Origin: Deltaproteobacteria bacterium
GTDB taxonomy: Bacteria > Desulfobacterota > GWC2-55-46 > UBA9637
DNA length: 48,151 nt
Reading direction: 5' to 3'
Assembly: GCA_016200645.1 (NCBI GenBank)
Contig: JACQEJ010000096.1
Coordinates: 1 to 48,151, forward strand
Position 1 is the first letter of the stretch. Each line of letters begins with the position of its first letter. Position numbers and translations under genes: made by a program. Of the stretch, positions 3,435-43,010 are shown piece after piece. Below the pieces are notes generated by a model, which was not told the DNA's origin, ran no database searches, and worked only from the letters and a program-made list of their open reading frames with translations.

Positions 3435-4949
3435 TTATTTGGCGAGCCTTTCCTTGACCAGCTTATTCAACACCTGCGGATTTGCCTGTCCCTTGGTCGC
3501 CTTCATGGTCTGACCGATAAAAAAGCTGAAGAGTTTTTCCTTTCCTCCCTTATATTCAGCGACCTCTTTGGGATTGGCGGCAATCACTTCGTCTATCGCC
3601 TTTATCAATGCGCCCTCGTTTGAAATCTGGACAAGCCCTTTCCCCTTTACTATCGCCTCCGGGTCCTTGCCTGTTTTATACACATCCTCAAACACTTCCT
3701 TTGCGGTTTTTAAATTGATACTCCCTGCATCAACCATCTTGAGAAGTTTTGCAAAGGCTGAAGGCTGAATGCTGAAAGTGGAAGGCTGTGTTATATCTTT
3801 GCCGTCCTCTTTGATCAGCCTCAACAACTCCCCCATGACCCAGTTGGACACATTTTTGCCAGCAGTTCCTTGCCCCTTGCCCCTTGCCCCTTGCCCCTCG
3901 TATTTTTGGACGCACTCTTCATAATAATTCGCCAATTCCTTGCTTGCGGTTAAAACACCTGCATCATAGGAAGGGATGCCATATTCTTTTATAAACCTTT
4001 GTCTCTTTTTTGCCGGAAGCTCCGGCAAGGTATTTTTTATCTCCTCTATCCATGCCTCATCAATATGCAAAGGAAGCAGATCGGGTTCAGGAAAATAGCG
4101 GTAATCGTGCGCCTCTTCCTTGCTCCGCATGGAAACGGTTATCCCTTTATCAGAATCAAAGAGCAGTGTTTCCTGAATAACCTTGCCGCCGTCCTCTATA
4201 ACCTCTATCTGTCGGTTTACCTCGTAATCAATTGCCTTTTGCACAAATCTGAATGAGTTCATATTTTTAAGCTCTGTCTTTGTGCCAAATTCTTTCCGGC
4301 CCACAGGCCTTATGGAGACATTTGCATCGCAGCGGAAACTCCCCTCTTCCATGTTGCCGTCGCAAATCTCAAGGTAAACCAGTATGTCCCGGAGCGCTTT
4401 GAGATATTCCACCGCCTCTTCTGAATTGCGAATATCCGGCTCGCTCACAATCTCAATCAGAGGAACGCCAGCCCTATTCAAATCAACAAAGCTAAAATCC
4501 GCATCCTCATAGCTCTCGCCGTGAAGGAGCTTTCCTGCGTCCTCTTCCATGTGTATCCTTGTTATGCCGATGCGCCTTTTTGCGCCGTTTACCCCCACAC
4601 CAAAATCTTTGGTGTGGGGGTTTACTTCAATATCAACATAACCCTTTTGTGTCAGGGGTTGGTCATACTGGGAAATCTGATACCCCTTTGGCAGGTCAGG
4701 ATAAAAATAGTTCTTCCGCGCAAAGATGCTTTTGTCGTTAACCTTGCAATGCGTTGCCAGAGCCATCTTTATGGCATATTCAACCGCTACCCTGTTTAAA
4801 ACAGGGAGCGTTCCGGGCATTCCAAGGCAGACCGGACAGACCTGCGTATTCGCCTCTGCGCCGAATTTTGTGGAACACCTGCAAAAGACCTTTGAGTTTG
4901 TCAAAAGCTGGGCGTGGACTTCAAGACCGATAACGGCTTCATATTGCAT
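3435..4949 (-). CDS. gatB: Asp-tRNA(Asn)/Glu-tRNA(Gln) amidotransferase subunit B
   Basis: [35 protein letters not shown] and a GatB/YqeY tail. 504 aa, longer than typical GatB because of two repeat insertions. Confidence 0.95.
3868..3898. repeat. In-frame AAGGGGC heptamer tract (coding strand) inside gatB
   Basis: Plus strand reads ccttgccccttgccccttgccccttgcccct. Encodes [12 protein letters not shown] in GatB. Confidence 0.9.
4592..4620. repeat. Palindromic element family P1 (CCCCCACACCAAA..TTTGGTGTGGGGG), in frame inside gatB
   Basis: cccccacaccaaaatctttggtgtggggg flanked by gtttac on both sides. Encodes [12 protein letters not shown] between IEV and [19 protein letters not shown]. Confidence 0.9.
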
Positions 4950-10100: not shown

Positions 10101-10774
10101 CAACCATAGAGCTTCCTCAAACAGAAGAATGGCACGATGCCCAGCTTTTGAGCTATGAGAAAGAAGCGCTCGGTTTTTATATCACCGGACATCCTCTGGA
10201 AAAATATGCGGAAGAGCTGAAGCATCTGGCAAACACCGACACTGATGGGATAAAAGAAAGGCAAGACGATGCAGAGGTGAGCATTGCCGGTATGGTAACG
10301 GCGGTGAAAGAGATAAATACAAAAAAAGGGGACCGGATGGCATTTATCACACTGGAAGATCTTAAGGGTTTTGTTGAGGTGATTGTATTTTCTGATGTGT
10401 ATAAAAATACCGCGCCCTATTTGAGCAGTGAGGCGCCTGTTGTCATAAAAGGCAAGATTGATAAAGGCGAGGAGGATGTAAAAATTATTGCACATACCGT
10501 CTATCCTCTGGAGCAGGCAAAGACAATGATTGTGAATGTTGCTCATATTAAAGCAGATGCGGCAAGACTCGAAACAGTTTCTCTGGAAAAGATAAAAGGG
10601 GTTCTGAGCGCGCATGCAGGCAGCTGTCCTGTATATATTCATCTTGTATGGAGCGACAGGGAAGTGGTGATTGCCGTCCCCGATAAACTCAGGGTTGCTC
10701 CTTCTGAAAAATTTATAAAGGATATCGAAATGCTTCTGGGGGACGGAAGCGTTGTTGTAAATGCAAAATTGTAA
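7199..10774 (+). CDS. dnaE: DNA polymerase III alpha subunit
   Basis: PHP motif FVHLHLHTQYSLLDG, pol III alpha core motifs, C-terminal OB region; 1191 aa. Confidence 0.95.
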   Translation: MQHANFVHLHLHTQYSLLDGAIRHDDLFKLAREYKMPALAMTDHGNMFGAIEFYEKASHHGIKPIIGCEVYVAPGSRFDRTAGRGNKEGAEYEGSHHLILLVKNIKGYRNLCRLATSAYLEGFYYKPRIDKELLKANSEGLIALSSCLHGEIPHLILNGNKEKALKAADEYKAIFNNNRFYLELQDNKLPEQKKVNEGLLEISKKLDVPIVATNDCHYLKREEAKAHDILICIQTGKTVTATDRLKFRTDEFYFKSPQEMETAFSSYPEAIKNTIEIAERCNLDFKLKEHHLPVFPVPDGEDIDIFFEKRAQHGLENRLRGMEQADLSAETPAQAGRVGVKDDGNTAASVQKWRYYERLEKELKVIKAMGFSGYFLIVADFIDFAKKENIPVGPGRGSAAGSLVAYALGITNLDPIQHNLLFERFLNPDRISLPDIDIDFCIEGRDDVIRYVAEKYGKDNVSQIITFGQMKAKAVIRDVGRAMDIPYSEVDRIAKLVPNILNITIDDAMRQEPRLKELSDKDARIKELMDIAKTLEGLPRHASTHAAGVVISNKPLIEYLPLYKAPKEEVVTTQYAMKDVEKIGLVKFDFLGLKTLTVIDRVVKLLKQKGIELDIENVRLDDTETYKLLSSGNTNGIFQLESSGIKELLRKLKPSDFEDIMSVVALYRPGPLQSGMVDDFIKRKHGKAAIKYELPQLKEMLANTYGVIVYQEQVMEIAKVLAGFSPGDADVLRKAMGKKLPEEMVVQRERFIEGAKKNKVEQKKAEKIFDLMANFAGYGFNKSHSAAYALIAYQTAYLKAHYPVEFMAALLTADMGNTDNVIKYIGECREMAIEILPPDVNESRMDFTVTSPSIPLVEGDRGRIRFGLAAVKNVGSAAIDVILKARKDGGPFASIVDFCTKVDLRKVNRRVIESLIKCGAFDSLGAKRARLMASIDKVMDISQATQRERENGQISIFQTIGGGNSGTATIELPQTEEWHDAQLLSYEKEALGFYITGHPLEKYAEELKHLANTDTDGIKERQDDAEVSIAGMVTAVKEINTKKGDRMAFITLEDLKGFVEVIVFSDVYKNTAPYLSSEAPVVIKGKIDKGEEDVKIIAHTVYPLEQAKTMIVNVAHIKADAARLETVSLEKIKGVLSAHAGSCPVYIHLVWSDREVVIAVPDKLRVAPSEKFIKDIEMLLGDGSVVVNAKL
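9747..9787. repeat. Palindromic element family P2 (CCCCCTCGTG core), in frame inside dnaE
   Basis: cctccccctctatccccctcgtggagggggacagggggagg. Encodes TSPSIPLVEGDRGR just before the conserved IRFGLAAVKNVG. Confidence 0.8.
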
Positions 10775-10775
10775 A

Positions 10776-10880
10776 CCCCCACACCTTGACCCCCACACCA
10801 AAGATTTTGGTGTGGGGGCAAGGAAGAAAAGAAGTAACCCTGCGCCAAGAGCGCAGGGCATTCCCAACAAGGTGTGGGGG
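10776..10880. repeat. Nested structured element after the dnaE stop: outer stem enclosing a P1 palindrome and a GC hairpin
   Basis: Outer arms cccccacaccttg (10776-10788) and caaggtgtggggg (10868-10880). Inner P1 palindrome 10790-10818. Hairpin ccctgcgc/gcgcaggg 10838-10858. Confidence 0.85.
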
Positions 10881-10892
10881 TAAATTGAATGG

Positions 10893-10992: not shown

Positions 10993-11961
10993 ATGGCGCT
11001 TCAACAATTTTTGGAATTTGAAAAACCGGTGGTTGAGTTGGAAAAGAAGATAGAAGAGCTCAAGCAGGCAGCCTTGGATACAAAGGTTGATAACAGCCAT
11101 GAGATAGAAAGGCTGAGCCAAAATGCAATGCGGCTTCAGGAGGAGATATTCTCAAATCTTACGCCGTGGCAGATAACGCAGCTTGCCAGGCATCCGCTTA
11201 GGCCATATACGTTGGATTATACGCCGCGTCTGTTTAAAGATTTTATTGAACTGCATGGCGACAGAAATTTTCGGGACGACCCTGCTATAGTCGGCGGCCT
11301 TGCGATGCTTGAAAATGAGCCTGTCATGGTTATAGGCCACCAAAAGGGGAGAACGACAAAGGAAAAAGTCTTCAGAAATTTCGGCATGCCCAATCCCGAA
11401 GGTTACCGCAAGGCTGTCCGGCTTATGAGCATGGCGGAGCGTCTCAAAAAGCCGATAATAACATTCATAGACACACCTGGCGCATTTCCGGGCATAGGCG
11501 CAGAGGAGCGCGGCCAGGCAGAGGCGATTGCCAAAAATCTTATGGTTATGTCAAGGCTTAAGGTGCCTATAATTGTTGTTGTTATAGGCGAAGGCGGCAG
11601 CGGCGGCGCGCTGGCCATCGGTGTCGGAGACCGAATTTTAATGCTGGAATATGCCACCTATTCGGTGATATCACCTGAAGGGTGCGCTGCAATACTATGG
11701 AAAGACGTAAGCAAGGCGGATGTTGCGGCAAAAGCGCTCAAGATAACAGCGAAAGACCTTCATAAGCTTGGGATCATTGATGAGGTGGTGAAAGAACCCC
11801 TTGGCGGCGCGCATCAGAGTATAGATGCAATGGCAATAACCATGAAAGAGGCTCTTGTGAGGTCGCTTCAGGATTTAAAGAAGTTTTCTCAGGATGAATT
11901 GCTGGAAATGAGGTATAAGAAATATAGGGAGATAGGAAAGTTTCAGGAAATTAGCTCATAG
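10993..11961 (+). CDS. accA: Acetyl-CoA carboxylase carboxyltransferase alpha subunit
   Basis: [18 protein letters not shown]-terminus, IDTPGAFPG and [10 protein letters not shown] motifs. ATG at 10993 with GGAG 7 nt upstream is preferred over the TTG at 10969. Confidence 0.9.
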
Positions 11962-12026
11962 CTCATGGCTCATAGCTGATAGTTTATAGTTTTTTACTAT
12001 GAGCCACGAGCTATCAGCCATGAGCT
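11953..12026. repeat. Intergenic mirrored heptamer hairpin (GCTCATA words), overlaps the accA stop
   Basis: Left arm agctcatagctcatggctcatagctgatag, loop ttttt, right arm actatgagccacgagctatcagccatgagct. Confidence 0.85.
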
Positions 12027-12039: not shown

Positions 12040-14211
12040 ATGGACGACTTAAAAAAAATAACAGAACTCAGGGCAAAGATAGATGTCATTGACGACAAGA
12101 TTCTGGACCTCCTGAATAAGAGAGCGCGTCTTGTCATTGAGGTTGGCAAGGAAAAGGTAGAGGGGAAAAGGGATTTTTATGCGCCTGAAAGAGAAAAGGA
12201 GATATACAAAAGGTTGACCGGGAAGAATCCCGGGCCTTTTCCCAATCAAGCGTTAAAGAATGTATTCAGGGAGATTATGTCCGCTTCCCTTTCCCTGGAA
12301 CGACCTTTAAAGGCTAGTTATTTCGGTCCAAAGGCCACCTTTACCCATCAGGCGTGTATGGAGTATTTTGGCCTTTCCGCAGAATTTGTCCCTGAAAAGG
12401 ATATTGCAGATGTGTTTGAAGATGTGGAGAGGGGGAAGACAGATTTTGGCGTGGTGCCTATAGAAAATACCATAGAAGGGGTTGTAAGCCATACCATTGA
12501 CATGTTCGTAACCTCTGATATAAAGATATGCGGGGAGATAATTATGGAGGTATCCCTTTCCCTTTTAAATAAAACCGGCAGGATTGAAGATGTAAAAAAG
12601 ATATGTTCCTACCCCCATGCCATCGCTGAGTGTAGAGAGTGGCTCAGGGAGCATGTTCCGGATATTCCGGTTTTTGATGTGTCTTCAACGGCAATGGCTG
12701 CACAGACCGCAAGCGAAGATCCGTCAGCCGCTGCCATTGCCAGTGAATTTGCGGCAGCCATCTATGATCTGCAGGTTGTTGAAAGAAAGATAGAAGACCA
12801 TACAAATAATTTTACGAGATTTCTTGTTATCGGGAAGAAAAGCCCTGAAAGAAGCGGCGATGACAAGACATCTATCATGTTTGCAGTAAAGGATGTCCCT
12901 GGCGCGCTGTACAGGATTCTTAAACCATTTGCAGAAAAAGGGATAAATCTTACCAAGATTGAATCCAGGCCGCAAAAGGGCAAGGCATGGGAATATATAT
13001 TCTTTGCGGATATGGACGGCCATGTCTCGGACAGCAAGGTGTCCGATGCGCTCAAGGAGCTTGAGGCGCAGTGTTCTTTTATGAAGATACTGGAGGCCTT
13101 AGTTCCATATCCGCCTGGCAAGCCTATGGAAGAGCTTGAGAGGGAGTTGGGGATAAAAAATTCCATCAAACTTGCGTCCAATGAAAACCCGCTTGGGCCT
13201 TCGCCTAAGGCTGTGGAGGCTGTGGCAAAGGCGCTCAAAAATCTCCACAGGTATCCTGATGGCGGATGTTATTATCTCAAGGAAAAGCTGGCTCAGCGTC
13301 TCAAGGTGAAGCCGGAGAATCTCATCATCGGCAACGGCTCCAATGAAATCATTGAGCTTGTCATCAGGACATTTTTAAGACCGGGCGATGAGGCGGTCAT
13401 GGGCAACCCGTCGTTTGCCGTATATCCGCTGGTTGTGCCTGCGGCAGGCGGAAAGAGCGTGCTCGTGCCTTTAAAAAATCTGACCCACGATTTGGATGCA
13501 ATGTTTGACGCGATAACGGAAAATACAAAATTGGTATTCATTGCAAACCCGAACAATCCCACAGGCACAATGAATACCAAGGCGCAGCTTGATAAATTTA
13601 TCGGCAGGTTGCGTAACGATATAATCCTTATTCTGGATGAGGCGTATTATGAATTTGTTACGGATAAGGATTTCCCCGCTTCTTTGGATTATTTAAACAG
13701 CGGCAAGAATATTGTGATACTCAGGACATTTTCAAAGATTTACGGCCTCGCAGGTTTGCGCGTAGGCTACGGCATTGCGCCTGAAAAGCTCAACTTTTAC
13801 ATGAATAAGGTGCGGCAGCCCTTTAATGTAAACAGCCTCGCCCAGATTGCTGCGATGGCTGCCTTGGATGATGACGAGCATCTAAAAAGGTCTCAGCGAA
13901 ATAACAGGGAAGGGCTTGCGTATCTCTTTGGAGAGTTAAAGGCAATGGGGCTTGAGTGCGTGCCTACGCAGGCGAATTTCTTTCTTATCAAGGTGGGCAA
14001 AGGCAAAGATGTTTACCCCCACACCAAAAATTTTGGTGTGGGGGTTTACGATGCGCTTTTAAGACAGGGCGTGATTGTCCGACCGATGGCAAGTTACGGC
14101 CTCGGCGAATACATCCGCGTTACCGTGGGACTGCCTGAGGAGAATAAGAGGTTTGTGGAGGCATTGAAAAAGACAGTAAACAGTAGACAGGAAAAAGATG
14201 GTAGAGGGTAG
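12040..14211 (+). CDS. pheA: Fusion protein: chorismate mutase / prephenate dehydratase / ACT domain + histidinol-phosphate/aromatic aminotransferase (HisC-like)
   Basis: CM helix LRAKIDVIDDKILDLLNKRA. PDT motif YFGPKATFTHQA. ACT motif TSIMFAVKDVPGALYRIL. Then LVPYPPGKP..KLASNENPLGPSP and FSKIYGLAGLRVGY (PLP-lysine motif) with no intervening stop; 723 aa. Confidence 0.85.
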   Translation: MDDLKKITELRAKIDVIDDKILDLLNKRARLVIEVGKEKVEGKRDFYAPEREKEIYKRLTGKNPGPFPNQALKNVFREIMSASLSLERPLKASYFGPKATFTHQACMEYFGLSAEFVPEKDIADVFEDVERGKTDFGVVPIENTIEGVVSHTIDMFVTSDIKICGEIIMEVSLSLLNKTGRIEDVKKICSYPHAIAECREWLREHVPDIPVFDVSSTAMAAQTASEDPSAAAIASEFAAAIYDLQVVERKIEDHTNNFTRFLVIGKKSPERSGDDKTSIMFAVKDVPGALYRILKPFAEKGINLTKIESRPQKGKAWEYIFFADMDGHVSDSKVSDALKELEAQCSFMKILEALVPYPPGKPMEELERELGIKNSIKLASNENPLGPSPKAVEAVAKALKNLHRYPDGGCYYLKEKLAQRLKVKPENLIIGNGSNEIIELVIRTFLRPGDEAVMGNPSFAVYPLVVPAAGGKSVLVPLKNLTHDLDAMFDAITENTKLVFIANPNNPTGTMNTKAQLDKFIGRLRNDIILILDEAYYEFVTDKDFPASLDYLNSGKNIVILRTFSKIYGLAGLRVGYGIAPEKLNFYMNKVRQPFNVNSLAQIAAMAALDDDEHLKRSQRNNREGLAYLFGELKAMGLECVPTQANFFLIKVGKGKDVYPHTKNFGVGVYDALLRQGVIVRPMASYGLGEYIRVTVGLPEENKRFVEALKKTVNSRQEKDGRG
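14016..14044. repeat. Palindromic element family P1, in frame inside the aminotransferase part of the fusion gene
   Basis: cccccacaccaaaaattttggtgtggggg, again flanked by gtttac on both sides. Encodes YPHTKNFGVGVY. Confidence 0.9.
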
Positions 14212-14291
14212 AAGGTAGATGGTAGAAAGAAAATCTTTTGTTTCTCCTGTCTACCTTCTACTACCTACTCTCTACTTCCTACTGCCTACTT
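14181..14291. repeat. Mirrored heptamer hairpin (GTAGAAG words), covers the fusion gene's 3' end and the spacer
   Basis: Left arm ggtagagggtagaaggtagatggtagaaag, right arm ctgtctaccttctactacctactctctacttcctactgcctac. Confidence 0.85.
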
Positions 14292-15323: not shown

Positions 15324-16226
15324 ATGAAAGGGGCAAGGGGCAAGGGGCAAGGGGCAGGAGAAATACACTTTAATAAAGTTGCCATAATCGGCGTTGGTCT
15401 TATCGGCGGGTCCCTTGCGATTATTTTGAGAGAAAAGGGAATTGCAAAAAATATTGTCGGCATCGGCAGGGGGCTGAAAAATCTTGAGACTGCAAAAAAA
15501 CTCGGTGTTATTGATTCATACACGCAGGATGCAAGGGAGGGCGTCCGGGACGCAGACCTTGTTGTGGCTGCAATACCTGTTGCAGGTATTGCAAAGGTTA
15601 TAAAAGAAGCGCTGCCTTTGCTCAAGAAAGGCGCAATAGTCACAGATGTCGGGAGCGTCAAGAAAAACATTGTCGATGAAGTAGAAAAAATCCTTCCTGA
15701 TACAATTCATTTTGTCGGAGGCCATCCTATTGCGGGCACTGAGAATGCAGGCGTTGAGGCTGCATTTTCCACACTCTTCCAGAATAAGAGATGCATACTC
15801 ACACCTACCAAAAAAACGAATAAAGCCGCTTTGGGGAAGGTAAAAAAACTGTGGGAGATTGCAGGCTCTGAAGTAATCGTCATGGATGCGGAAAAGCACG
15901 ACAAAATCCTTGCCGCTGTAAGTCATCTGCCCCATGTTGTCGCCTATTCACTCGTGAACACCGTAAGCAACATAAATGATTTTAATGAAAGCATTATAAA
16001 ATATTCAGCAGGCGGTTTTAAGGATTTTACCCGCATTGCCTCAAGCCCGCCTGAGATGTGGCGGGACATCTGCCTTTTGAACAAAGACGCGATACTTGAT
16101 GTTGTCCTAAGATTTCAGAAGACGCTTAAAGGGCTGGAGGAGATGATAAAAGACAGCGATGGAGAGGGGCTTCAAAAGGAATTTGAAAAGGCAAAGGCAG
16201 TAAGGGATGGGTTGAAGAAGGGGTAG
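15324..16226 (+). CDS. tyrA: Prephenate dehydrogenase
   Basis: VAIIGVGLIGGS Rossmann motif and HPIAGTE motif. The N-terminal 11 codons are repeat-encoded. Confidence 0.85.
   Translation: MKGARGKGQGAGEIHFNKVAIIGVGLIGGSLAIILREKGIAKNIVGIGRGLKNLETAKKLGVIDSYTQDAREGVRDADLVVAAIPVAGIAKVIKEALPLLKKGAIVTDVGSVKKNIVDEVEKILPDTIHFVGGHPIAGTENAGVEAAFSTLFQNKRCILTPTKKTNKAALGKVKKLWEIAGSEVIVMDAEKHDKILAAVSHLPHVVAYSLVNTVSNINDFNESIIKYSAGGFKDFTRIASSPPEMWRDICLLNKDAILDVVLRFQKTLKGLEEMIKDSDGEGLQKEFEKAKAVRDGLKKG
15328..15358. repeat. In-frame AAGGGGC heptamer tract at the tyrA 5' end
   Basis: aaggggcaaggggcaaggggcaaggggcagg. Encodes [11 protein letters not shown] directly after the start codon. Confidence 0.9.
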
Positions 16227-16232: not shown

Positions 16233-16300
16233 CCTTCAGATTGATTAGCACGATAACGATGTGGTAATCTTTACTTTACCGGTATTTAAAAAGGTATCCT

Positions 16301-16624
16301 ATGTCATTAAAGCAATCAGAAAAAAATGCCATTGGGGAGCTAAAGAAGGTTTTAAGTGAAAAATATAGCCTCCTTGATTTTCGCGTATTCGGCTCAAAAG
16401 CAAGGGACGAGGATACTTCCGAATCTGATATAGATATAATGATTGAACTATCTGAATTAAACCCGAGTATTGAGGCTGGTATTGACAAAACCATATTCAA
16501 TATCAATTTACAACACGACTGTTTTATATCCGCAGTGCTTTTCAGCAAGAAGGAGTTGGAAGAAGGTCCGCTTGACCAATCGCCGTTATACAGGGTTATA
16601 GAAAAGGAGGGAGTCTCTCTTTGA
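16301..16624 (+). CDS. Nucleotidyltransferase-domain protein (MNT-type antitoxin)
   Basis: FGSKARDEDTSESDIDIMIE (GS..D.D minimal NTase motif). 107 aa. 4-nt TTGA overlap with the next gene. Confidence 0.85.
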   Translation: MSLKQSEKNAIGELKKVLSEKYSLLDFRVFGSKARDEDTSESDIDIMIELSELNPSIEAGIDKTIFNINLQHDCFISAVLFSKKELEEGPLDQSPLYRVIEKEGVSL

Positions 16625-17031
16625 CCTCCGCAGAAAAAAGGCGCGAACTGGCCATTTATCGCTTGAAACAAGCCTCAGAAACCATTGATGAGGCAAAATA
16701 TCTTTTATCCGGCGGAAAAAGTCCCAGGTCTGTAATAAATAGAGTTTACTATGCAATGTTTTATGCCATCCTTGGCCTGCTGATATTTGAGCCTTACACA
16801 TCATCAAAGCACAGCGGAGTTTTATCCTACTTTAACCGCAGATTTATCAAAAGCGGTCTATTGCCAAATGACATTGGCGAAACCGTGAATATTGCATTTG
16901 AGATGCGCCAAAGAGGGGACTATAGGGAATATGTCGAGCTTACTTATGAACAGGTAGAACCTTTCATAGATAAAGCTGAGGGATTTATCAAGGCCATTCG
17001 GAATTATTTGTCGGAGAGCAAACTGATTTGA
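16621..17031 (+). CDS. HEPN-domain protein (toxin partner of MNT)
   Basis: 136 aa, helical. The only R..H dipeptide (RFIKSGLLPNDIGETVNIAFEMRQRGDYREY region) does not match a clean Rx4-6H motif, so the call rests on the paired position with the NTase gene. TTG start at 16621. Confidence 0.8.
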   Translation: MTSAEKRRELAIYRLKQASETIDEAKYLLSGGKSPRSVINRVYYAMFYAILGLLIFEPYTSSKHSGVLSYFNRRFIKSGLLPNDIGETVNIAFEMRQRGDYREYVELTYEQVEPFIDKAEGFIKAIRNYLSESKLI

Positions 17032-17062
17032 ATAAACGGTCGCTGTCCCTATTTTCTCTCAG

Positions 17063-17179
17063 AGATTTCAGAACACGCTTAAAAGGCTGGAGGAGATGAT
17101 AAAAGACAGCGATGGAGAGGGGCTTCAAAAGGAATTTGAAAAGGCAAAAGGGGTAAGGGATGGGTTGAAGAAGGGGTAG
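17063..17179 (+). pseudogene. Orphan duplicate of the last ~38 codons of tyrA, including the stop
   Basis: Translates to RFQNTLKRLEEMIKDSDGEGLQKEFEKAKGVRDGLKKG*, which parallels the true TyrA C-terminus. No upstream body. Confidence 0.8.
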
Positions 17180-17185
17180 GAGTTG
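17063..17185 (+). repeat. Direct repeat, right copy
   Basis: Matches 16110-16232. Together the two copies bracket only the MNT/HEPN pair. Confidence 0.9.
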
Positions 17186-17201
17186 TTGTAAGAAATCAAT
17201 T

Positions 17202-18152
17202 ATGAAAAAACCGGCAAACAATAAAAAAAAGAAAAAAACATCCAGCCTGCTTAATAAGTCAAGAGGTTGTAGCCCTTCTGAACCGGGTGAATTTTATATA
17301 TCCGAAGCGACAGTCTCTTACGGAAATAACGTCAAAAAGCCCTTCACGGTTTACTATGACAATCCGGAGCCATCTATTAGACTTCTCAAAGGTGATTGCA
17401 TTGAGATTTTAAATCAGGCAAGAGAAAACAGCGTTGATATGATTTTTGCCGATCCGCCGTATTTCCTTTCTAACGGAGGAATTACCTGCCATGCGGGAAA
17501 GATGGTTTCTGTAAACAAGGGGGCGTGGGATAAATCCAAAGGCGTTATAGAAAATCATAAGTTTATCCTTGAGTGGCTGAAAGCGTGCCAGAGGGTTTTA
17601 AAGCCTAACGGCACTATTTGGGTTTCCGGCACGACACATATTATTTACTCCATAGGCTTCGCGATGCAGGAACTTGGCTATAAGATACTTAACGACATTG
17701 TCTGGTATAAGCGCAATGCCCCGCCGAATCTTTCTTGCAGATATTTTACTCACTCCACCGAGATAGTTTTATGGGCAGCAAAGAATCAAAAGAGCAAACA
17801 TTGTTTTAATTATCCATTGATGAAGGAAATGAATCAGGGGAAGCAAATGCGGAATGTTTGGGAAATTTCTGCGCCACAGTCGGAAGAAAAAAAGTTCGGC
17901 AAACACCCTACTCAAAAACCTGTTGATCTTTTAACCAGACTAATACTTGCCTCTACAAAAGAAGGGGATTTGGTTTTAGATCCTTTTTGTGGGAGTTCAA
18001 CAACAGGGGTGGCGGCGATTTCACTGAACAGGAAATATGTGGGAATTGATTTAGAAGAAGATTATCTCAAAGTTTCTGTCAAAAGATTGGAAGAAGCTGC
18101 CGCAAATAAAGAGGCTAAACTGTTTATTGCTGGAAAGGTTGCGGGCTTATGA
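17202..18152 (+). CDS. DNA methyltransferase, beta-class (motif IV before motif I), probably N6-adenine (N4-cytosine not excluded)
   Basis: IFADPPYF (motif IV) lies upstream of LDPFCGSSTTGVAA (motif I). Lys-rich N-terminus; 316 aa. Confidence 0.85.
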   Translation: MKKPANNKKKKKTSSLLNKSRGCSPSEPGEFYISEATVSYGNNVKKPFTVYYDNPEPSIRLLKGDCIEILNQARENSVDMIFADPPYFLSNGGITCHAGKMVSVNKGAWDKSKGVIENHKFILEWLKACQRVLKPNGTIWVSGTTHIIYSIGFAMQELGYKILNDIVWYKRNAPPNLSCRYFTHSTEIVLWAAKNQKSKHCFNYPLMKEMNQGKQMRNVWEISAPQSEEKKFGKHPTQKPVDLLTRLILASTKEGDLVLDPFCGSSTTGVAAISLNRKYVGIDLEEDYLKVSVKRLEEAAANKEAKLFIAGKVAGL

Positions 18153-19498
18153 ATACTTTTAACTCTTTTTTTAAAACATTGTTGGGCAATTCCAATATTT
18201 CATTATCACGAAATTTATCTATTGATGAAATTAGATTTGTTATATCTAAAATTAACGAGTATTTTTATACCAACTATGAAGGTATTGGTCATACAAATAT
18301 TTTAGATGACGATTTTGAGTATTTTTCTGAGTTTCACAAATTTTGGGAAAAGTATCATAAAGAAATATTAAATCCCCAGATCGATGACAGCCAATGCTCG
18401 CTTGTTGCGAATGTTTTGCACGATGTGTTTATCAAATATGGCAGACCGCCTTTTTATGAGTTGTATAATACCCACGCATTAACGGCTGAAGAAATATGCA
18501 AGATAAGATATTTCTCTGCCAATCAGGATTTTAGAGGTTCAAGGGATTTTGAGGATTTGTTTGAAATATATAAAGATGACCCCAGTGTTTTTGATAAGGA
18601 AAATATCAATCAAAATCCAGAGGATTTTTTGAAGAATATTGGGATAACAAGTCTTTCACAGAATGACAAACGTGTTAAGTATGCTATTACTGCGTCCAAA
18701 CTTGTAATTGACAATAAAATAGAGCCTTATGAACTCTTGTCATTTTGTCAAAATGATATTGAAAAGGTAAGAAATCTTTTGATAAGTAATCGCGGTTCTG
18801 GTTTCGGCAATAAGAAGACAGATATGTTTTTGAGAGATATGGTTGTGTTGGGAGTTTGGAGAAAGCCAAAAAACTTTGATAAAATTGATGTTGCCAGTGA
18901 TATAAATACAGTCAAGGTTGCATTAAGAAGCAGGATATTGAAAACAGATATTGTTTTGATTAGTAGTTTTTTGGATATTTTCTGTTATCAATATGGTTTG
19001 ATTGATGATATGAATGCGAAGGCATGGCGGAGGGTATGGGAAATATGGAAAAATAAATATCCAAAGGAATGTATAGAAAGCCCATGCCTAATTGATTATT
19101 TTGCTTACAGAGTGATAGGCAAAGATTTTTGTAAGGAATCGCTATGTATATTTAAGTGTGAATCAGAAAATCATACTTTTAAATGGCATTCAGGAAGAAA
19201 TAAAACTTGCCAAATATGTTTCAAAAATAAGACAAAAAATAAAGCATATGTGCTTAATAAAATATTGCCTTGTACAGATACTCAAGGATATATAGTAATT
19301 GAAAAATCTAATTTTGTTTCCGGTGATAATCCATTATTGCCAAATCTCAAAGAATGTCCTTTTGAAGTTGCATGCAAACCCAAAACTGATATTTTTAAAA
19401 AACTGAACCCACCAAAATCTATAAGTATACTTGGCCAGACTGGATGGGAAAGTGCAAAAACAAGAGGTAATGAAGGTGGCGGTGGCTTAATGTCGTAG
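18149..19498 (+). CDS. Uncharacterised 449-aa protein with an endonuclease-III-like helix-hairpin-helix signature and a Cys-rich C-terminal region
   Basis: ATGA overlap with the methyltransferase stop. LLISNRGSGFGNKKTDMFLRDM..KIDVASDINTVKVALRSRIL resembles HhH-GPD (LPGVGxKTA..VDxHxxRV). Eleven Cys between residues 307 and 409, including CX4CX3C and CX2C. Visibly A+T-rich. Confidence 0.7.
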   Translation: MNTFNSFFKTLLGNSNISLSRNLSIDEIRFVISKINEYFYTNYEGIGHTNILDDDFEYFSEFHKFWEKYHKEILNPQIDDSQCSLVANVLHDVFIKYGRPPFYELYNTHALTAEEICKIRYFSANQDFRGSRDFEDLFEIYKDDPSVFDKENINQNPEDFLKNIGITSLSQNDKRVKYAITASKLVIDNKIEPYELLSFCQNDIEKVRNLLISNRGSGFGNKKTDMFLRDMVVLGVWRKPKNFDKIDVASDINTVKVALRSRILKTDIVLISSFLDIFCYQYGLIDDMNAKAWRRVWEIWKNKYPKECIESPCLIDYFAYRVIGKDFCKESLCIFKCESENHTFKWHSGRNKTCQICFKNKTKNKAYVLNKILPCTDTQGYIVIEKSNFVSGDNPLLPNLKECPFEVACKPKTDIFKKLNPPKSISILGQTGWESAKTRGNEGGGGLMS

Positions 19499-23447: not shown

Positions 23448-25903
23448 TTGATGCCTCCTTCCTCTCCTCTAATTTCTATGCCGAATTTATCTTTTAAGCC
23501 TTTTAATATTGCCAAGTGGGCGCTATTCACTTCCTCATCGGTCAATGTTCTATCCGGAGAACGATACAGAAAGCGAAGGGCGATGCTCACTTTGTCTTGC
23601 GGGATATGTTCACCGTAGTATACATCAAAAACATTAACTTCTTCAAGGAGTTTCATATCCAGCGCTTTGACAAAATGATAAACCTCCTGGAACGAAATCT
23701 CCTTATCTATTATCATTGCCGCATCCCTGACTATCGTAGGATATGTAGGGAGAGAAGCGTATCTTTTTTTTCTGTGGGAAGCTATGAGAATGGCATTCAT
23801 GCCAAGCTCAAATATATGCACAGGCTGTTTGATATCCAGCCGCTGCATGGCATCAGGATGAATTTCTCCTATTATTCCGAGTCTCCGGTTGGATACCTCA
23901 ATCACAGCGGCCTTGCCAGGGTGCAGGAACGGGATATCTCCCCTGGGGATAAAGGCATACCTGTCAATGCCCAGCCCTGTCAAAACCTGTTCCGCTGCGC
24001 CTTTTATATCGTAAAAATCCGCAGCCTCCCTGCCGGTATTCCATGCCTCGCCGTATCTGAGGCCGCTTATCAAACCGCTTACGAGCTCCCTCTCTTCGGT
24101 TTCCTTCCCCTTTGGGATAAATATCTTGCCGATCTCAAAAATCTTTATGTCGCGATTATTGTAATTCAAATTATACTGCAGGGTTTGCAAAAGACAGGGG
24201 ATAAGACTCTGCCTCATCACAGATTGTTCGTCTGTTAATGGATTTATCAGCGCCAATCCGCTTTTTATATCAGGTGTTGTAATCTCAAAAAACTTTGGTG
24301 ACAGAAAGCTATAATTGACAGCCTCGAGAAAACCATTGTTGATTAAAATATCCCTCGCCTTTTCTCTTAGCAAATCCGCCCCTTTTGTTTTACGGGTTGA
24401 TAATCCTGCTGCCGGAAGGATGGCGGGGATATTTTCATAGCCGTAGAGCCTTGCAATTTCTTCTATGATATCTATCTCTTTGAGCAAGTCCACCCTGAAC
24501 GCAGGCGGTATAACATTCCATGCCGTCTGCTGCCTGCTGCCTGTTGCCTTACAGGCGATGCTGAGTCTCTTCAAGCAATCCTCAACCTCTTTTTTCTTTA
24601 TATCAATGCCGAGGAGTTTATTTATTCGGGAAAGTCTTACTTTAATCGCTGCGGGTTTGTGCGGCCTGGGGTATTTATCAACGGCTCCATCTGCTATATT
24701 TCCGCCTGCCAGTGCAGCGATCATCCGGGCAGCCCTGTCCAATGCCTTTGCCACGCCCTCTATGTCGGCGCCCCGCTCAAATCTGTAAGATGACTCGGTA
24801 GAAATCCCCAATGCCTTTGATGTCCTCCGCACACAGGCAGGATCAAAATATGCGCTCTCCAGCAGGATATTTTTTGTTGTCTCCCGTATCTCCGATCCCT
24901 TTCCGCCCATAATCCCTGCCAGGGCAACAGGCCTCTCCTTATCAGCAATAACAAGCATATCCCTGGTAAGCGCCCTGTCAATGCCATCAAGGGTCTGAAG
25001 CCTTTCATTTTCTTTCGCCATTCTTACCACGATCTGTTTGCCGGAAATAAGGTCGTAGTCAAACGCATGCAAGGGGTGGCCGTATTCGAGCATCACATAA
25101 TTGGTCGCATCCACCACATTGTTTATTGCTCTGAAGCCGAGAAACTCAAGTCTCTGCTTAAGCCAGACCGGCGAAGGGCCGATTTGAACATTTTCAATAA
25201 TCTGCGCGGCATATCGTCTGCAAAGAGAAGGTTCAGCAATGGAAACGTACGGGAGTTTTGTGTGTTGCGTTTTGCGTTTTGCGTTTTTACTCCTGACTCC
25301 TGACTTCTGACTCCTGACCGTAGCGCCTGTTATCGCGGCTATTTCTCTGGCAATCCCAATAATGGATAAACAATCCGGCCTGTTCGGCGTGACATTTATA
25401 TTGAAGATAAAATCATTTAAACCGGTTGCCTCTGTAAAATTTTTGCCGATGGGAAAATCTTGCGGCAGAATCATTATGCCAACCCCCTCGTGCCCCCCTT
25501 TTTCTAAAGGGGGGACGTGGGGGGTTAGCCCCAACTCAGCTTCGGAACACATCATGCCTTCGGATTCCACGCCCCTTATCTTTGTCTTCTCTATTTTTAT
25601 GCCTTTGGGCAACGTTGCCCCGGGAAGCGCCAGAGCGACTTTGTCGCCTGCCTTCATATTTTTTGCGCCGCAGACAATGGAGTGGACCCCTTTATCGGTC
25701 TTTACCTTGCAGAATGAAAGCCTGTCGGCATTTGGATGTTTTTCTACAGAGAGGATTTGGGCTATCACAACACCTTTTATATCTTTACCCGGCGCCTCAA
25801 TGCCTTCCACCTCAAAACCAGCCATGGTTAATTGTTCAGCCAGTTGAACAGGTGAGGGAATCGCTCTTATATATTCTTTAAGCCAGTTGTAGCTTATCTT
25901 CAT
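23444..25903 (-). CDS. pheT: Phenylalanine--tRNA ligase beta subunit
   Basis: MKISYNWLKEY N-terminus, tRNA-binding, B3/4, B5 and FDX-ACB regions. 819 aa, including two repeat insertions. Confidence 0.95.
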   Translation of the reverse strand: MKISYNWLKEYIRAIPSPVQLAEQLTMAGFEVEGIEAPGKDIKGVVIAQILSVEKHPNADRLSFCKVKTDKGVHSIVCGAKNMKAGDKVALALPGATLPKGIKIEKTKIRGVESEGMMCSEAELGLTPHVPPLEKGGHEGVGIMILPQDFPIGKNFTEATGLNDFIFNINVTPNRPDCLSIIGIAREIAAITGATVRSQKSGVRSKNAKRKTQHTKLPYVSIAEPSLCRRYAAQIIENVQIGPSPVWLKQRLEFLGFRAINNVVDATNYVMLEYGHPLHAFDYDLISGKQIVVRMAKENERLQTLDGIDRALTRDMLVIADKERPVALAGIMGGKGSEIRETTKNILLESAYFDPACVRRTSKALGISTESSYRFERGADIEGVAKALDRAARMIAALAGGNIADGAVDKYPRPHKPAAIKVRLSRINKLLGIDIKKKEVEDCLKRLSIACKATGSRQQTAWNVIPPAFRVDLLKEIDIIEEIARLYGYENIPAILPAAGLSTRKTKGADLLREKARDILINNGFLEAVNYSFLSPKFFEITTPDIKSGLALINPLTDEQSVMRQSLIPCLLQTLQYNLNYNNRDIKIFEIGKIFIPKGKETEERELVSGLISGLRYGEAWNTGREAADFYDIKGAAEQVLTGLGIDRYAFIPRGDIPFLHPGKAAVIEVSNRRLGIIGEIHPDAMQRLDIKQPVHIFELGMNAILIASHRKKRYASLPTYPTIVRDAAMIIDKEISFQEVYHFVKALDMKLLEEVNVFDVYYGEHIPQDKVSIALRFLYRSPDRTLTDEEVNSAHLAILKGLKDKFGIEIRGEEGGIK
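25267..25318. repeat. In-frame tandem heptamers (GCGTTTT)x3 + (CTCCTGA)x4 inside pheT
   Basis: gcgttttgcgttttgcgtttttactcctgactcctgacttctgactcctgac. Encodes VRSQKSGVRSKNAKRKTQ on the minus strand. Confidence 0.9.
25481..25526. repeat. Palindromic element family P2, in frame inside pheT
   Basis: aaccccctcgtgcccccctttttctaaaggggggacgtggggggtt. Encodes TPHVPPLEKGGHEGVG after the conserved MCSEAELGL. Confidence 0.85.
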
Positions 25904-27418: not shown

Positions 27419-27512
27419 GGTTGAGGTTAAGATTAAGGTTAAGAGGCTAAAAGATTAAGAGGTTTAAAACCTTTTCACCTTTTTGCCTTTTCATCTCTTA
27501 ACCTTAACCTGT
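27419..27512. repeat. Mirrored hairpin (GGTTAAG words) between rpmI and rplT
   Basis: Left arm ggttgaggttaagattaaggttaagaggctaaaagattaagagg, right arm aaccttttcacctttttgccttttcatctcttaaccttaacc. Confidence 0.85.
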
Positions 27513-34026: not shown

Positions 34027-34079
34027 ACCGTAAGTCGTAAGTCGGAAGTAGTTACCACTTACTACTTACAACTTACTGT
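34027..34079. repeat. Mirrored heptamer hairpin (CGTAAGT words) between kinase and regulator genes
   Basis: Left arm cgtaagtcgtaagtcggaagtagt, right arm accacttactacttacaacttactg. Overlaps the kinase stop. Confidence 0.85.
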
Positions 34080-37000
34080 TTTTGTATGCCGCAACCCTGT
34101 CTCCGCCTATCCCCCTGGCTTCTGCCAGCGCCTTGCGGGCCGCTGTCATAAATCCTTCCAGGTTATGGGCATCATCAAGATATGTCGCCACCCCAACGCA
34201 CGCGCTTATCTTTCCTCCGGGCTGGTTTTCCGCATTGTAAAAAGGGTAACTCTCAATAATAGTTTTGAATCTCTTTGCCAGCTGCAGGGCAGGGGATTTT
34301 GGCGTATTGGGGAGGAGTATCGCCAGCTCATCCCTCCCGTATCTCACTGCCGTATCATAACCCCGGAGTGTCTTTTTTATCAGCTCCGCTGTCTTTCTCA
34401 GCACGGCATTGCCGTGAAACTCTCCATTTCTGCCGATATACCCAGGAAGGTCGTCTATAGCTATCATCAAGAGGGAGCATGATTGTTTGTATCTGTCCAC
34501 CCTCTTTATCTCCTGACCCAGCCTGATATTCAGATAACGGTGATTAAAAAGCCCGGTAATCTCATCCACCAGTCCCGCCCTTTTCGGGTAGAGGTATTCC
34601 AGCTCCCTTATCTGCTCTACCAGATATTCTTTTGAGAAAGAGCCCCGCTGGATAACCCGGTCAATGTATCCCATAACCTTAAGCCTTTCGTCAATCTCCA
34701 TCTCCTTTTCAGTCAGGAGAAATACAGGTATTCCATGGGTTGCCGGGGTGGTTTTTAATTTATGTATGATATCAAAACTGCTGATGCCGTCGTCCAGGCC
34801 GTTAAACATTATATCAATGATGATAATATCCGGTTTGGCAACCAGGGCAAGCTCAATGCCTTCCCCCCCGCTCTTCACGCTTGATACGGAAAACCCTTCG
34901 ACTTCTAATGTTGAGGTTAAAAGTTTTACCATCTCCTCATCTTTCTCTATCAGGAGGATGCTGGCGGGTTGTCTCGATTTTCTGAACATGGGTCTGAATT
35001 CATTGAGCCTTTGAATAAGCCTGGCGCCGTCCACAGGTTTTATGAGATAATCCGCCGCGCCGAGGACAAAACCAAGCTCTTTGTTATCTATGATTGAATT
35101 TATGATGACAGGAATATCTTTTGTCTCCTCGCCGCTCTTTAATGTCTGCAGCACCTCCCAGCCGTCTTTGTTGGGGAGCATGATATCAAGGGTTATGGCA
35201 AAGGGCTTTAACACCCGCGCCTTCTTAACGGCGTCATTTCCGTCAAAGGCATGGGCAACAGAGTAGCCTGCCTTTACCAGATGGATGGTGATAAGCTCGG
35301 ATGTGGGAGGGTCATCCTCCACCACCAGCACCAGAGGCGCATTTGCTTTACCATCACACCAACCAGGTTGGTGTGATGGTAAATCCTGCAAATGCCCCTC
35401 AACAACCGGCAGAGGATGGCTGATGGCAGAGGCTTTAGGCTGAGATCCTTGAAAAGCATCGGAGGCGGCCATCGGCAGGACAAAGCCGAAGGTAGAACCC
35501 TGACCGAACCGGCTTTCAGCCCATATCATCCCGCCGTGGAGCTCCACCAGTCTTTTGGTCAGCGCAAGGCCTAGTCCCAGCCCCTCGTGCCTTCTGGAAT
35601 AACTCCCGTCCACCTGTTCAAACTCCTCAAAGAGCCGTTCCATATCATTCGGTTTTATACCGATGCCGGTATCAATAACTGAAATCTTTAGCCATGAAGC
35701 CGGAAACGGCGGACTGGCTGCAGAAAAGGATTTTCCCGATCCTCCGCTTCCTGCTTCCCACATCCCGGCTTGAAGAATAACTTTGCCATTCTGAGGGGTA
35801 AATTTGATTGCATTGCTTAAAAGATTGTAGAGTATCTGCTTGAATTTTATCCCGTCTGCCGTTATCTCCGGCAGGTCCGGGTTTAATTGTAATTCAAGGG
35901 TTACCCCATGTTTATTAGCCAGCGGCTGCACAATGCCCAGCACTTCATTCACGATGGCTGAAAGGGGGAAAGTGGAATAATCCAGGGTCATCTTGCCCGC
36001 CTCTATTTTTGCGATATCCAGGATATTATTGATAAGCTGCAGGAGATGCCTGCCTGATGTCAGGACATTATTTATATATCTCGCCTGTTTATCATTCAGG
36101 CTGCCAAAGGTATCGGTCAAGAGAATCTCTGAAAAACCTAAGATAGAATTGAGCGGTGTTCTCAACTCATGGCTCATATTGGTGATAAACTGGTTTTTGA
36201 CCTTGTCCGACCTTTCCAGTTGTTTATTGGCCTTCTCCAACTCCATTGTCCTTTCCAGTATCCTCTCCTCGAGCCTGTCGTTAATCTCTTTCAGCTCCCT
36301 GTTCTTTTTATCTATTTCGAGCCGTATCTTTTTTTCTTCCGTTATATCCTTGCTGATGCCAACGGTTCCGATCACCTTTCCCGTCCAATTGCCCAGCTGG
36401 GAAAGGGTAAGGCTTATGTCAACGATCCTCCCGTCCTTTGCCACAAGCTGGGTTTCATAATTGGAGATACTATCTTCCTTTTCCAGCTTGCTCAGTATGT
36501 TATTCCTTTCATCCCTGTTGCGGTACAGTGTGGATACAGCTCTGCCGATGACCTCATCTCTCCTATATCCAAGAATTGTTTCTGCCCCCCGGTTAAATTC
36601 AACAATCTTTCCCTCGGTATCGGTAGTGATGATGACATCAGCCGAGTCATTTAAGACATTTTTCAGATAATCCTTTGCCTCAAGGAGGGCGTCGTTTTTA
36701 TCCTCCAATTCTTTCAGAAGCTGAAATTTTTCTATGGCAAAGGTGGCCTGGGCTCCGAGCAGACTCAGGAAAGATATTTCGTTTGAGGTAAACCTGCGTG
36801 GTTTAAAATCATCTATGTAGAGGATGCCGATGATGCGGCTGTTGGCAAGAAGCGGTATGGCGATGAGAGACCTTATGCCTTCATCAAGCATGAGCGGGTT
36901 ATTGAACAGAGGCTCTTTTTTTATATCAGATATGACAACGGGCTTTCTTGCGCCGAGGATGTGGCTGGTCATGCCGTTTGGCCTTGCCTTCCATCTGTCA

Positions 37001-39061: not shown

Positions 39062-39091
39062 CCCCCACACCAAAAGATTTTGGTGTGGGGG
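39062..39091. repeat. Palindromic element family P1 in the cysM 5' leader
   Basis: cccccacaccaaaagattttggtgtggggg, about 30 nt upstream of the cysM ATG. Confidence 0.9.
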
Positions 39092-42891: not shown

Positions 42892-42906
42892 GGATGGGGA
42901 TATGAG

Positions 42907-43010
42907 CCCCGTTAGACCTAAAAGCAAGAGGCTTTGCTTCAATCGATTGGTACGGAGAACAGTTTAAAAGTGAAGTGGGCAGCAATTATTTTAAAGGAGG
43001 TCTAACGGGG
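42907..43010 (+). promoter_or_regulatory. Long-range 13-bp helix sequestering the RBS/start of the permease gene
   Basis: ccccgttagacct (42907-42919) is perfectly complementary to aggtctaacgggg (42998-43010). The latter overlaps the GGAGG SD and the first base of the GTG start. Confidence 0.45.

Follow-up and report, generated by a model that had tools for sequence, protein, structure and literature searches.

How a short, perfect palindrome came to be translated in frame within an essential gene is the question raised by contig JACQEJ010000096.1 (48,151 nt; hereafter the window, meaning the whole stretch of DNA analysed) from a Deltaproteobacteria-labelled groundwater metagenome-assembled genome (MAG). 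The palindrome, designated P1, lay in the hisC-type aminotransferase part of a fused open reading frame (ORF), and a preliminary description of the window had attributed it, together with a related copy in gatB, to a mobile or templated mechanism. The hisC palindrome could be recognized with high confidence as a recent mobile-element insertion; it is best read (probability roughly 0.6) as the non-autonomous, ORF-less form, resembling a transposable element of the miniature inverted-repeat type (MITE), of a ~290-bp hairpin element carrying a GIY-YIG nuclease gene, with that nuclease as its putative mobiliser.

The 39 bases at 14011-14049 were gtttacccccacaccaaaaattttggtgtgggggtttac, i.e., GTTTAC-CCCCACACCAAAAATTTTGGTGTGGGG-GTTTAC (in lower case, ccccacaccaaaaattttggtgtgggg between gtttac flanks), and they were read in frame 1 of the ORF 12040-14211(+) to give the product ...FFLIKVGKGKD-VYPHTKNFGVGVY-DALLRQGVIVRP. 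The two arms (14015-14029 and 14031-14045) had 15 nt each and 100% complementarity; the in-frame, peptide-encoding palindrome of the preliminary description was thereby confirmed from sequence, frame, and arm complementarity. The palindrome's outermost base pair was formed by the C ending the left-hand GTTTAC with the G opening the right-hand one, and this pair did not belong to the flanking duplication. On direct reading, P1 contained stop codons in none of the six frames, and its RNA hairpin had a computed free energy of about -27 to -28 kcal/mol; with 29 bp and no ORF of its own, it was short and non-coding, as MITEs are. The 29-mer (three or fewer mismatches) occurred at three sites of the window (4592, 10790, and 14016), with none expected from 100 dinucleotide shuffles, and the window harbored four tight P1 copies plus one long member in total (Table 1). 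The class-I/II aminotransferase half, C-terminal in the fused ORF, was annotated by NCBI as a 376-aa histidinol-phosphate transaminase (P0001), in which the insertion corresponded to residues ~308-319.

The sequence comparison with relatives identified the segment as an insertion. When P0001 was aligned with 24 HisC orthologues (65-93% identity), all 24 displayed one 11-residue gap exactly at the palindrome-encoded peptide, while the 90% cluster of P0001 itself had seven full-length members, all seven without the 11 residues, plus a fragment that stopped before the site. The corresponding empty sites were found in two related groundwater MAGs (L001 and L002) sharing the gene order dnaE-accA-pheA-hisC-aroF-tyrA: AAAGAG-GTTTAC-GAC in L002 and AAAGAG-ATTTAC-GAT in L001, compared to AAAGAT GTTTAC [27 nt] GTTTAC GAT in the window. 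Since these empty loci contained a single (G/A)TTTAC, the 33-nt gain in hisC was composed of the 29-bp palindrome plus a 4-bp target-site duplication (TSD) TTTA.

The gatB copy (4588-4625, minus strand) encoded a peptide of the same class as that in HisC, as had been claimed. These 11 residues were missing in 16 GatB orthologues and in the solved GatB structures, and the relative L232 displayed the empty site GAA GTGAAT GGC in place of GAA GTAAAC [27 nt] GTAAAC GGC in the window; the insertion point was the turn joining two strands, directly before the conserved RIGITRxHxEEDAGK motif. With the segment lacking from the 24 HisC orthologues, the seven cluster members, L001 and L002, and the 16 GatB orthologues, the attribution to mobile or templated insertion was supported. 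In gatB of a related organism (L231, 664-830; Logan SRR13554776), a 164-nt element of a second arm family (CCCCGTTAGA; see below) was located at the P1 site of the window, reading ATAAA-CCCCGTTAGAAGGCT…AGCCTTCTAACTGGG-TAAAT at …EV-NG… with the target TAAA; the GatB loop had been hit twice independently, by P1 in the window and by the 164-nt element in L231.

Palindromes can come from assembly, and the window is a MAG contig; nevertheless, an artefact of assembly or sequencing, or an ancestral HisC loop that is palindromic by chance, is scarcely credible, because the identical sequence with site-specific flank duplications was present in hundreds of contigs that stem from unrelated projects and were built with unrelated assemblers, frame-preserving lengths were enriched in ORFs, and every orthologue was without the segment. 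The preliminary description had itself named two observations that would undo it: a segment generally present in HisC orthologues, which was seen in 0/24, and sequencing error, which is untenable for >200 loci in independent assemblies with matching flank duplications and an in-ORF enrichment of the frame-preserving length.

P1 was identified elsewhere at >228 loci through two scans: (i) a genome scan (one genome per species; pattern CCCCACACCAAA-N1-8-TTTGGTGTGGGG), which gave at least 108 loci and 113 copies with enough flank; and (ii) an independent metagenome scan with free interior (CCCCCACACC-N0-30-GGTGTGGGGG), which gave at least 120 loci and 122 copies for TSD analysis. The counts below refer to the copies among the matches listed. 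In the 113 genome copies, the first base pair beyond the CCCC/GGGG ends of the arms was C/G in 88 and T/A in 11, and this outer pair, being mostly C/G or T/A, was counted as palindrome and not as TSD. The four bases beyond it matched between left and right in 61-76% of the copies per position, compared to 15-50% in other registers; perfect 4-mer flanking repeats were present in 48 of the 113 copies, whereas shifted registers gave 0-5 and shuffled partners a mean of 9.7 (maximum 21). The metagenome copies behaved likewise, with a perfect 4-bp TSD in 50 of the 122 (shuffled partners: mean 6.8, maximum 15). The duplicated words were TTTA (17 copies), TAAA (13), TTAA (4), and other T..A words in the genome scan, and TAAA, TTTA, TTGA, and TCAA in the metagenome scan, giving a duplicated-target consensus T-W-W-A within a wider target that looks like R-TWWA-Y. 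The GTTTAC target preference raised in the preliminary description therefore stood insofar as certain targets were favoured, but the favoured target was the 4-bp T-W-W-A, mostly TTTA/TAAA, and not a fixed hexamer.

The P1 arms were perfect and 13-14 bp long, and the core CCCCCACACC was conserved in members of 29 to 135 bp. In the metagenome scan, the constant part comprised the ten terminal bases only, while the interiors varied (AAA…TTT, TATGCATA, and long unrelated stems) and were usually self-complementary; the longer members (65-135 nt) had the same ends, and most of them had matching 4-bp flanking duplications. An origin of the variable centre by templated addition or end-joining is disfavoured, because the longer members have unrelated interiors yet the same TSDs. 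No family matching the hairpins or the 105-nt long member of the window was found in Rfam.

The hosts named in the genome scan included (i) many Patescibacteria lineages of the candidate phyla radiation (CPR), among them Parcubacteria, Saccharibacteria, and Microgenomates; (ii) Omnitrophota, Saganbacteria, Ratteibacteria, Brocadiaceae, Planctomycetota, and one Nitrospira MAG; (iii) Thermodesulfobacteriota- or Deltaproteobacteria-labelled MAGs, including the assemblies holding L002 and L232; and (iv) one gammaproteobacterium, Clostridia, and Spirochaetia. Where record names show the sample type, it was mostly groundwater or subsurface. P1 was absent from 2.9 million viral contigs (0 copies), and a phage-borne origin was accordingly left unsupported. 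In the MAG labelled Nitrospira japonica DR5_44_14 (L013, L015, L017, L020, and L029), P1 lay within a ~150-nt repeat conserved on both sides, and four of the five copies were ≤~130 nt from the ends of the fetched stretches; such a repeat would break the assembly where the stretch end is a contig end.

The commonest P1 form (27-nt core) adds 29 + 4 = 33 nt in total. Within the 113 genome-scan copies, this 33-nt form was located inside long ORFs in 29 of 58 cases, compared to 9 of 55 for the other lengths (Fisher p = 1.6e-4); both shares fall below the normal bacterial coding density of ~85-90%, and the length/ORF bias is what insertion at random, with purifying selection acting afterwards, leaves behind. 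Reading frame 0, which encodes PHTKxFGVG, was favoured (17/28 copies). In the AlphaFold2 model of P0001 (mean pLDDT 84), residues 308-319 constituted the sole internal segment with pLDDT < 50 and formed a loop between the strand 300-304 and the helix 319-328, and the solved HisC structures displayed an indel at this position; a low-confidence loop in an otherwise confident fold, coinciding with that indel, supports the earlier statement that the peptide is tolerated. P1 would thus survive in the essential genes hisC and gatB because it adds 33 nt without a stop and places 11 residues in a surface loop, leaving the enzyme unbroken. In one member of the HisC cluster (P0123), six unrelated residues, NPAERD, were inserted upstream of the P1 site at a distance of three residues (alignment columns ~339-344), which indicates that this HisC loop accepts indels repeatedly.

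No transposase was present among the 20 window ORFs (Pfam), and all-against-all ORF clustering of first 110 and then 232 loci revealed no recurrent mobility family beside the copies: the recurring families were housekeeping only (ABC ATPases, release factors, CheB, and sigma factors). Since no gene family recurred beside the copies and the window contained no transposase, the P1 elements are non-autonomous. The candidate for a full-length parent was found between the arms themselves. ORFs of 84-90 codons were located exactly between P1 arms in L047, L188, and L217 (decayed in L216), and their products were composed of the GIY-YIG catalytic domain (Pfam PF01541; E = 1e-14 to 1e-19). The ATG of the ORF lay 3-30 nt inside the left arm and, where the unit was intact, the stop codon directly adjoined the right arm, so that the full-length unit of ~290 bp displayed the same two arms bracketing a single 84-aa GIY-YIG gene. 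A GIY-YIG scan of the first 110 loci had given two matches, and the link became clear after the metagenome loci were added. The catalytic domain occupied residues 1-71 of the 84-aa protein, and a separate DNA-binding domain was absent; the residues Y3, Y5, Y16, R26, H30, and E50 were invariant in 26 sequences, and the closest solved structures were the UPF0213 proteins BH0048 and EF2693.

The linkage of arms and nuclease was also seen when approached from the protein side. A database search with one P1-arm nuclease gave 1196 homologues, nearly all of 84 aa, and an exhaustive search over 50%-identity clusters gave 7637 at E ≤ 1e-3 and 946 at E ≤ 1e-10. Six homologues were picked by protein sequence alone (P0309, P0256, P0368, P0360 from Elusimicrobia, P0351, and P0262) and their DNA was then fetched; all six were bracketed by CCCCCACACCAA…/…TTTGGTGTGGGGG arms in the pattern …TTTA-CCCCCACACCAA(A)…ATG … stop-TTTGGTG(T/G)GGGGG-T..A. 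About 15 further homologues, called from an upstream start or read past the stop, contained arm-encoded PPHQ or PHTK just before MFYxY, or FGVG past the C-terminus. The GIY-YIG unit L253 displayed a perfect TTTA/TTTA duplication. A second nuclease subfamily (B; C-terminus …YLTG or …LSLTG) was found between arms of a second type, CCCCGTTAGA…TCTAACGGGG; in its units, the C-terminal residues were encoded by the right arm, and the stop codon came from the TGAA or TAAA flanking it. This second arm type likewise had ORF-less copies with 4-bp TSDs, present at 11 places in loci chosen only for P1, in frame in proteins (L125 and L231), and in the window (42907-43010). The arms and the nuclease gene therefore made up one heritable ~290-bp unit, and P1 was this unit minus its gene, as a MITE is to its parent; the assignment of P1 as the ORF-less form of the GIY-YIG unit has good support.

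The host contexts of the GIY-YIG units were unrelated (the gap between a Ser_hydrolase gene and a small ORF, the inside of a small ORF, and positions beside polysaccharide-synthesis genes and beside a diversity-generating-retroelement-type reverse transcriptase/Avd locus); the sole constant around them was the pair of P1 arms, and no single conserved homing site was met with. In L243-L252 (the P0256 locus) and L188, a small host gene was interrupted by the GIY-YIG unit and called as two ORFs, the upstream one of 64 aa, with its end within the left arm, and the downstream one of ~60 aa, and the sequence beyond the element differed between samples. In L263/L264 (1-1165), the GIY-YIG/P1 unit adjoined a reverse transcriptase gene plus an Avd-like (bAvd / 23S_rRNA_IVP) gene; this diversity-generating-retroelement-type neighbourhood is probably coincidental.

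The nuclease was taken as the mobiliser on two grounds: no other gene was ever found between the arms or next to them, and each nuclease subfamily goes with its own arm type; this proposed enzymology, including the chemistry of cutting, is put forward with moderate to low confidence. The 29-bp element would consist of two abutting 13-14-bp terminal inverted repeats starting CCCCCACACC, integrated at TTTA with duplication of 4 bp. A GIY-YIG nuclease encoded elsewhere in the genome or community would recognize the arms, either as duplex ends or as an extruded hairpin, and the same nuclease would mobilise full-length and ORF-less copies alike. The fixed 4-bp duplication implies target cuts staggered by 4 nt. 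Speculatively, cuts at the arm/flank boundaries might leave TWWA overhangs, with the joints completed by host repair or ligation; such a scheme would also permit precise excision and favour re-insertion at the same word, which would fit the dominance of TTTA/TAAA. Gyrase-type 4-bp staggered cleavage was considered and rejected on target sequence, given the site preference of gyrase.

Several points weigh against mobilisation by this nuclease. The GIY-YIG gene was absent from the 48-kb window, more than half of the P1 copies were without a perfect TSD, and several ORF-bearing units had unequal flanks (TTTA/TGAA in L188, L153, and L265). That nuclease subfamily and arm type co-vary proves that they are inherited together as a unit, not that the protein acts on the arms, and the palindrome could have existed first and then been invaded by the GIY-YIG ORF. 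The two ends of a 29-bp duplex lie too close together for synapsis in the manner of DDE transposons. GIY-YIG nucleases are hydrolytic and are not known to catalyse strand transfer or to transpose DNA; those that have been characterised produce short 3' overhangs instead of 4-nt 5' staggers.

The main rival is the invasion of pre-existing palindromes by a homing endonuclease: P1 would be independently mobile and dispersed in its ORF-less form by another enzyme, while the GIY-YIG ORF would be a free-standing homing endonuclease gene whose product cuts the palindrome and which is copied into its centre. Homing endonucleases classically include the GIY-YIG family, all ORF-bearing units have the ORF exactly at the palindrome centre between intact arms, perfect TSDs were about equally frequent around ORF-bearing and ORF-less units, and a 29-bp palindrome has the typical size of a homing-endonuclease site (PMC11270868). 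We nevertheless consider this unlikely: homing requires flanking homology, whereas the sequence common to dispersed P1 copies amounts to only ~13 bp per side; the second enzyme was not found beside >200 copies; and the dispersal of the palindrome, its TSD, and its cross-phylum spread would be left unexplained. The nuclease resembled the GIY-YIG homing endonucleases in being encoded by a selfish gene with intact catalytic residues, but unlike I-TevI-type enzymes, which have a separate DNA-binding domain and one conserved site, it consisted of the catalytic domain only and was associated with inverted repeats, 4-bp duplications, and many unrelated sites. GIY-YIG ORFs inserted into CPR rRNA genes are not intron-associated and are without insertion-site conservation (PMC11270868), which speaks against homing and fits a transposon-like element.

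Two further alternatives would bring in a conventional transposase. P1 might be an ordinary MITE of a DDE transposon (IS1380/piggyBac-like or IS5/IS701-like), with the autonomous copy elsewhere and the GIY-YIG ORF as a passenger; the terminal inverted repeats, the fixed 4-bp TSD at A/T-rich T..A targets, and the element ends CCC…GGG recall IS1380 (CC ends and 4-5-bp TSDs) and piggyBac (CCC…GGG ends and TTAA duplication). This origin is improbable, since ~1.6 Mb of loci yielded no DDE transposase between the arms or next to them (a weak test, the loci having been chosen around short copies), an ISEcp1-type query gave no match (likewise a weak test), a scan for elements up to 5 kb with perfect arms and matching TSD gave only chance pairings of two short elements, the only gene ever between the arms was the GIY-YIG ORF of the ~290-bp units, the preferred target was TTTA/TAAA and not TTAA, and the ends of a 29-bp element cannot be brought together by bending, as a DDE synaptic complex would require. 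Very improbable is a hairpin of the repetitive extragenic palindrome (REP)/REPIN type or derived from IS200/IS605 (PATE), moved single-stranded by a Y1 HUH transposase (RAYT or TnpA). The size of ~30 nt, the G+C-rich stem, and the hundreds of dispersed copies do resemble REPs, and a left flank that often reads (T)TTAC is reminiscent of TTAC, the target of IS608; but HUH elements have no TSD and use fixed cleavage motifs, whereas the P1 flanks were direct repeats co-varying within a copy and differing between copies (TTTA, TAAA, TTGA, TCAA, TGAA, TATA…). Moreover, half of the 33-nt copies were intragenic (29/58), unlike the extragenic REPs with their conserved tetranucleotide, and the arm-flanked gene was GIY-YIG (PF01541) and not Y1. 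The closest parallel is that the nuclease gene associated with REPs is itself flanked by hairpins (PMC3116915), an arrangement mirrored by the arm-bracketed GIY-YIG gene and its many dispersed ORF-less hairpins.

The reading of P1 as an ORF-less derivative of the GIY-YIG unit can also be set beside other known palindromic and miniature elements. Rickettsia palindromic elements (RPE) are palindromic, non-autonomous, and inserted in frame in unrelated, often essential genes with a fold-compatible peptide; the portions of PMC10969869 at hand describe them as ~100-150 bp, confined to Rickettsia, and name no mobilising gene. Like RPE, the hisC and gatB inserts occupied surface loops, a functional likeness; unlike RPE, P1 had 29 bp, a defined 4-bp TSD, identical arms in many phyla, ORF-bearing relatives, and a candidate enzyme, and its host here was a Deltaproteobacteria-labelled groundwater MAG in place of Rickettsia. 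P1 shared with bacterial MITEs (Correia, Nezha, and QMITE) short length, multiple copies, terminal inverted repeats (TIRs), TSDs, a hairpin fold, and an excess of ORF-less over gene-bearing copies, but it was far smaller than usual MITEs, with two TIRs separated by 1-8 nt, and the gene found between its TIRs encoded an 84-aa GIY-YIG nuclease and not a DDE, HUH, or serine transposase. The small dispersed repeats of heterocystous cyanobacteria (Elhai et al. 2008) are reportedly mobile, ~21-27 nt long, and in part hairpins, with no known mobilising enzyme; P1 differs from them in sequence and hosts.

In the literature searched, whose coverage was incomplete, neither the palindrome nor the second arm family nor the GIY-YIG linkage was found described, and the arm sequences had no relevant occurrence; the P1 family across many bacterial phyla is apparently undescribed. 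The genes inferred to have passed from Patescibacteria into other bacteria of groundwater include GIY-YIG genes (PMC12455944), and this report and that on CPR rRNA genes (PMC11270868) touch the nuclease side without describing the arms, both fitting the picture given here. There is a substantial chance that the full-length GIY-YIG element represents a new class. In its complete form, a proposal we hold tentatively and at somewhat less than even odds, P1 and the CCCCGTTAGA family would represent, in ORF-less form, a new class of mobile element in prokaryotes: ~290 bp when autonomous, with an 84-aa GIY-YIG nuclease as the sole gene and 13-bp inverted repeats, moving by cutting plus host ligation or repair with 4-bp TWWA duplication, crossing phyla in groundwater, and seeding in-frame peptides through its 29-bp derivatives. 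Were this true, it would to our knowledge be the smallest autonomous transposable element and the first GIY-YIG-driven type of DNA transposon. If the linkage holds, it would reveal a kind of selfish DNA that has gone unrecognised although very abundant in bacteria not yet cultivated, CPR/Patescibacteria among them, provide a function for the large orphan family of 84-aa GIY-YIG (UPF0213-like) proteins, and account for many split genes and odd 11-residue inserts (PHTKxFGVG, PPHQxFWCGG, TPTPKxLVWG, and NPVR…LTG) in MAG proteomes. The copies also constitute a natural experiment on the tolerance of proteins to random loop insertions, and how a 29-bp palindrome can move at all is a mechanistic puzzle; in practice, such palindromes break assemblies and put stable hairpins into the mRNAs of essential genes.

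Table 1. Positions of P1, related elements, and the host ORF in the window
Feature	Position	Strand	Remarks
P1, perfect 29-bp palindrome CCCCCACACCAAAA-A-TTTTGGTGTGGGGG	14016-14044		In frame in hisC, ORF-less; absent from orthologues and from L001 and L002
Left 4-bp TSD of P1, TTTA	14012-14015		Single (G/A)TTTAC at empty sites L001 and L002; flank-register statistics
Right 4-bp TSD of P1, TTTA	14045-14048		Basis as for left copy
Host ORF: pheA (chorismate mutase / prephenate dehydratase) fused in frame to hisC-type aminotransferase	12040-14211	+	
Second in-frame P1, in gatB (ORF 3435-4949, minus)	4592-4620		TSDs 4588-4591 / 4621-4624, coding-strand TAAA
105-nt long member, same 13-bp terminal arms CCCCCACACCTTG…CAAGGTGTGGGGG	10776-10880		TSD TAAA 10772-10775 / 10881-10884
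Intergenic P1, 4-nt centre, 30 bp	39062-39091		Upstream of PALP-domain gene at 39120; flanks TTCA / ATTC, no intact TSD
Probable older, diverged copy CCATCACACCAACC-A-GGTTGGTGTGATGG	35351-35379		Flanks TTTA / TAAA; related to AACC…GGTT subfamily
ORF-less member of second arm family, CCCCGTTAGACCT…AGGTCTAACGGGG, 104 nt	42907-43010		Intergenic; TSD TGAG 42903-42906 / 43011-43014

The other copies of the window differed in context. The 105-nt member had a whole P1 palindrome nested at 10790-10818 and folded into a three-way hairpin with a free energy of -68.9 kcal/mol, and its left TSD provided the stop codon of dnaE (10772-10774). The diverged copy lay in frame in the linker of a histidine-kinase/receiver/GGDEF-type ORF (34066-37548, minus strand). 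In L153 and L224, GIY-YIG genes of subfamily B stood between the same arms as those of the 104-nt member, and in L142 between arms of that type.

At the pheA/hisC junction of the host ORF (13080-13100), one continuous ORF read …FMKIL-EALVPYPP…; compared to L001 and L002, ~83 nt were gone, namely the last ~9 pheA codons, the spacer, and the first ~13 hisC codons, and this junction reflects either a genuine fusion of the two genes in frame or a deletion made in assembly.

Additional repeats were scattered over the window: (i) a G+C-rich inverted repeat in frame in pheT (25478-25529, minus strand), CTAA-CCCCCCACGTCCCCCCTTTAGAAAAAGGGGGGCACGAGGGGG-TTGG, encoding TPHVPPLEKGGHEGV, of which ~10 residues were missing in solved PheT structures and which had no clear TSD, and which may represent a further family of hairpin elements; (ii) in-frame tandem heptamers (GGGGCAA)x3-4 in gatB (3868-3897, minus strand) and at the start of a tyrA-like ORF (15329-15357), resembling the STRR heptamer repeats of cyanobacteria; and (iii) imperfect inverted arrays of heptamers (GGTAGAA-, GGTTAAG-, and GCTCATA-type) making up many intergenic regions (14189-14280, 27430-27510, 11954-12026, 45687-45751, 44420-44489, and 1852-1925) as long hairpins between convergent or tandem genes, a repeat system distinct from P1. 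The gatB heptamers added a second 11-residue segment, missing in solved GatB structures and variable among close orthologues, and those at 15329-15357 encoded a peptide in the prephenate-dehydrogenase-like ORF.

A low-G+C island (0.35-0.41) was located between tyrA and aroA (16276-19498), and it contained a HEPN-domain ORF, an N6/N4 DNA methylase gene (17202-18152), and an adjoining 449-aa ORF without Pfam match, a possible restriction partner of the methylase; the same position in the syntenic L001 was occupied by other cargo (nucleotidyltransferase/HEPN and others).

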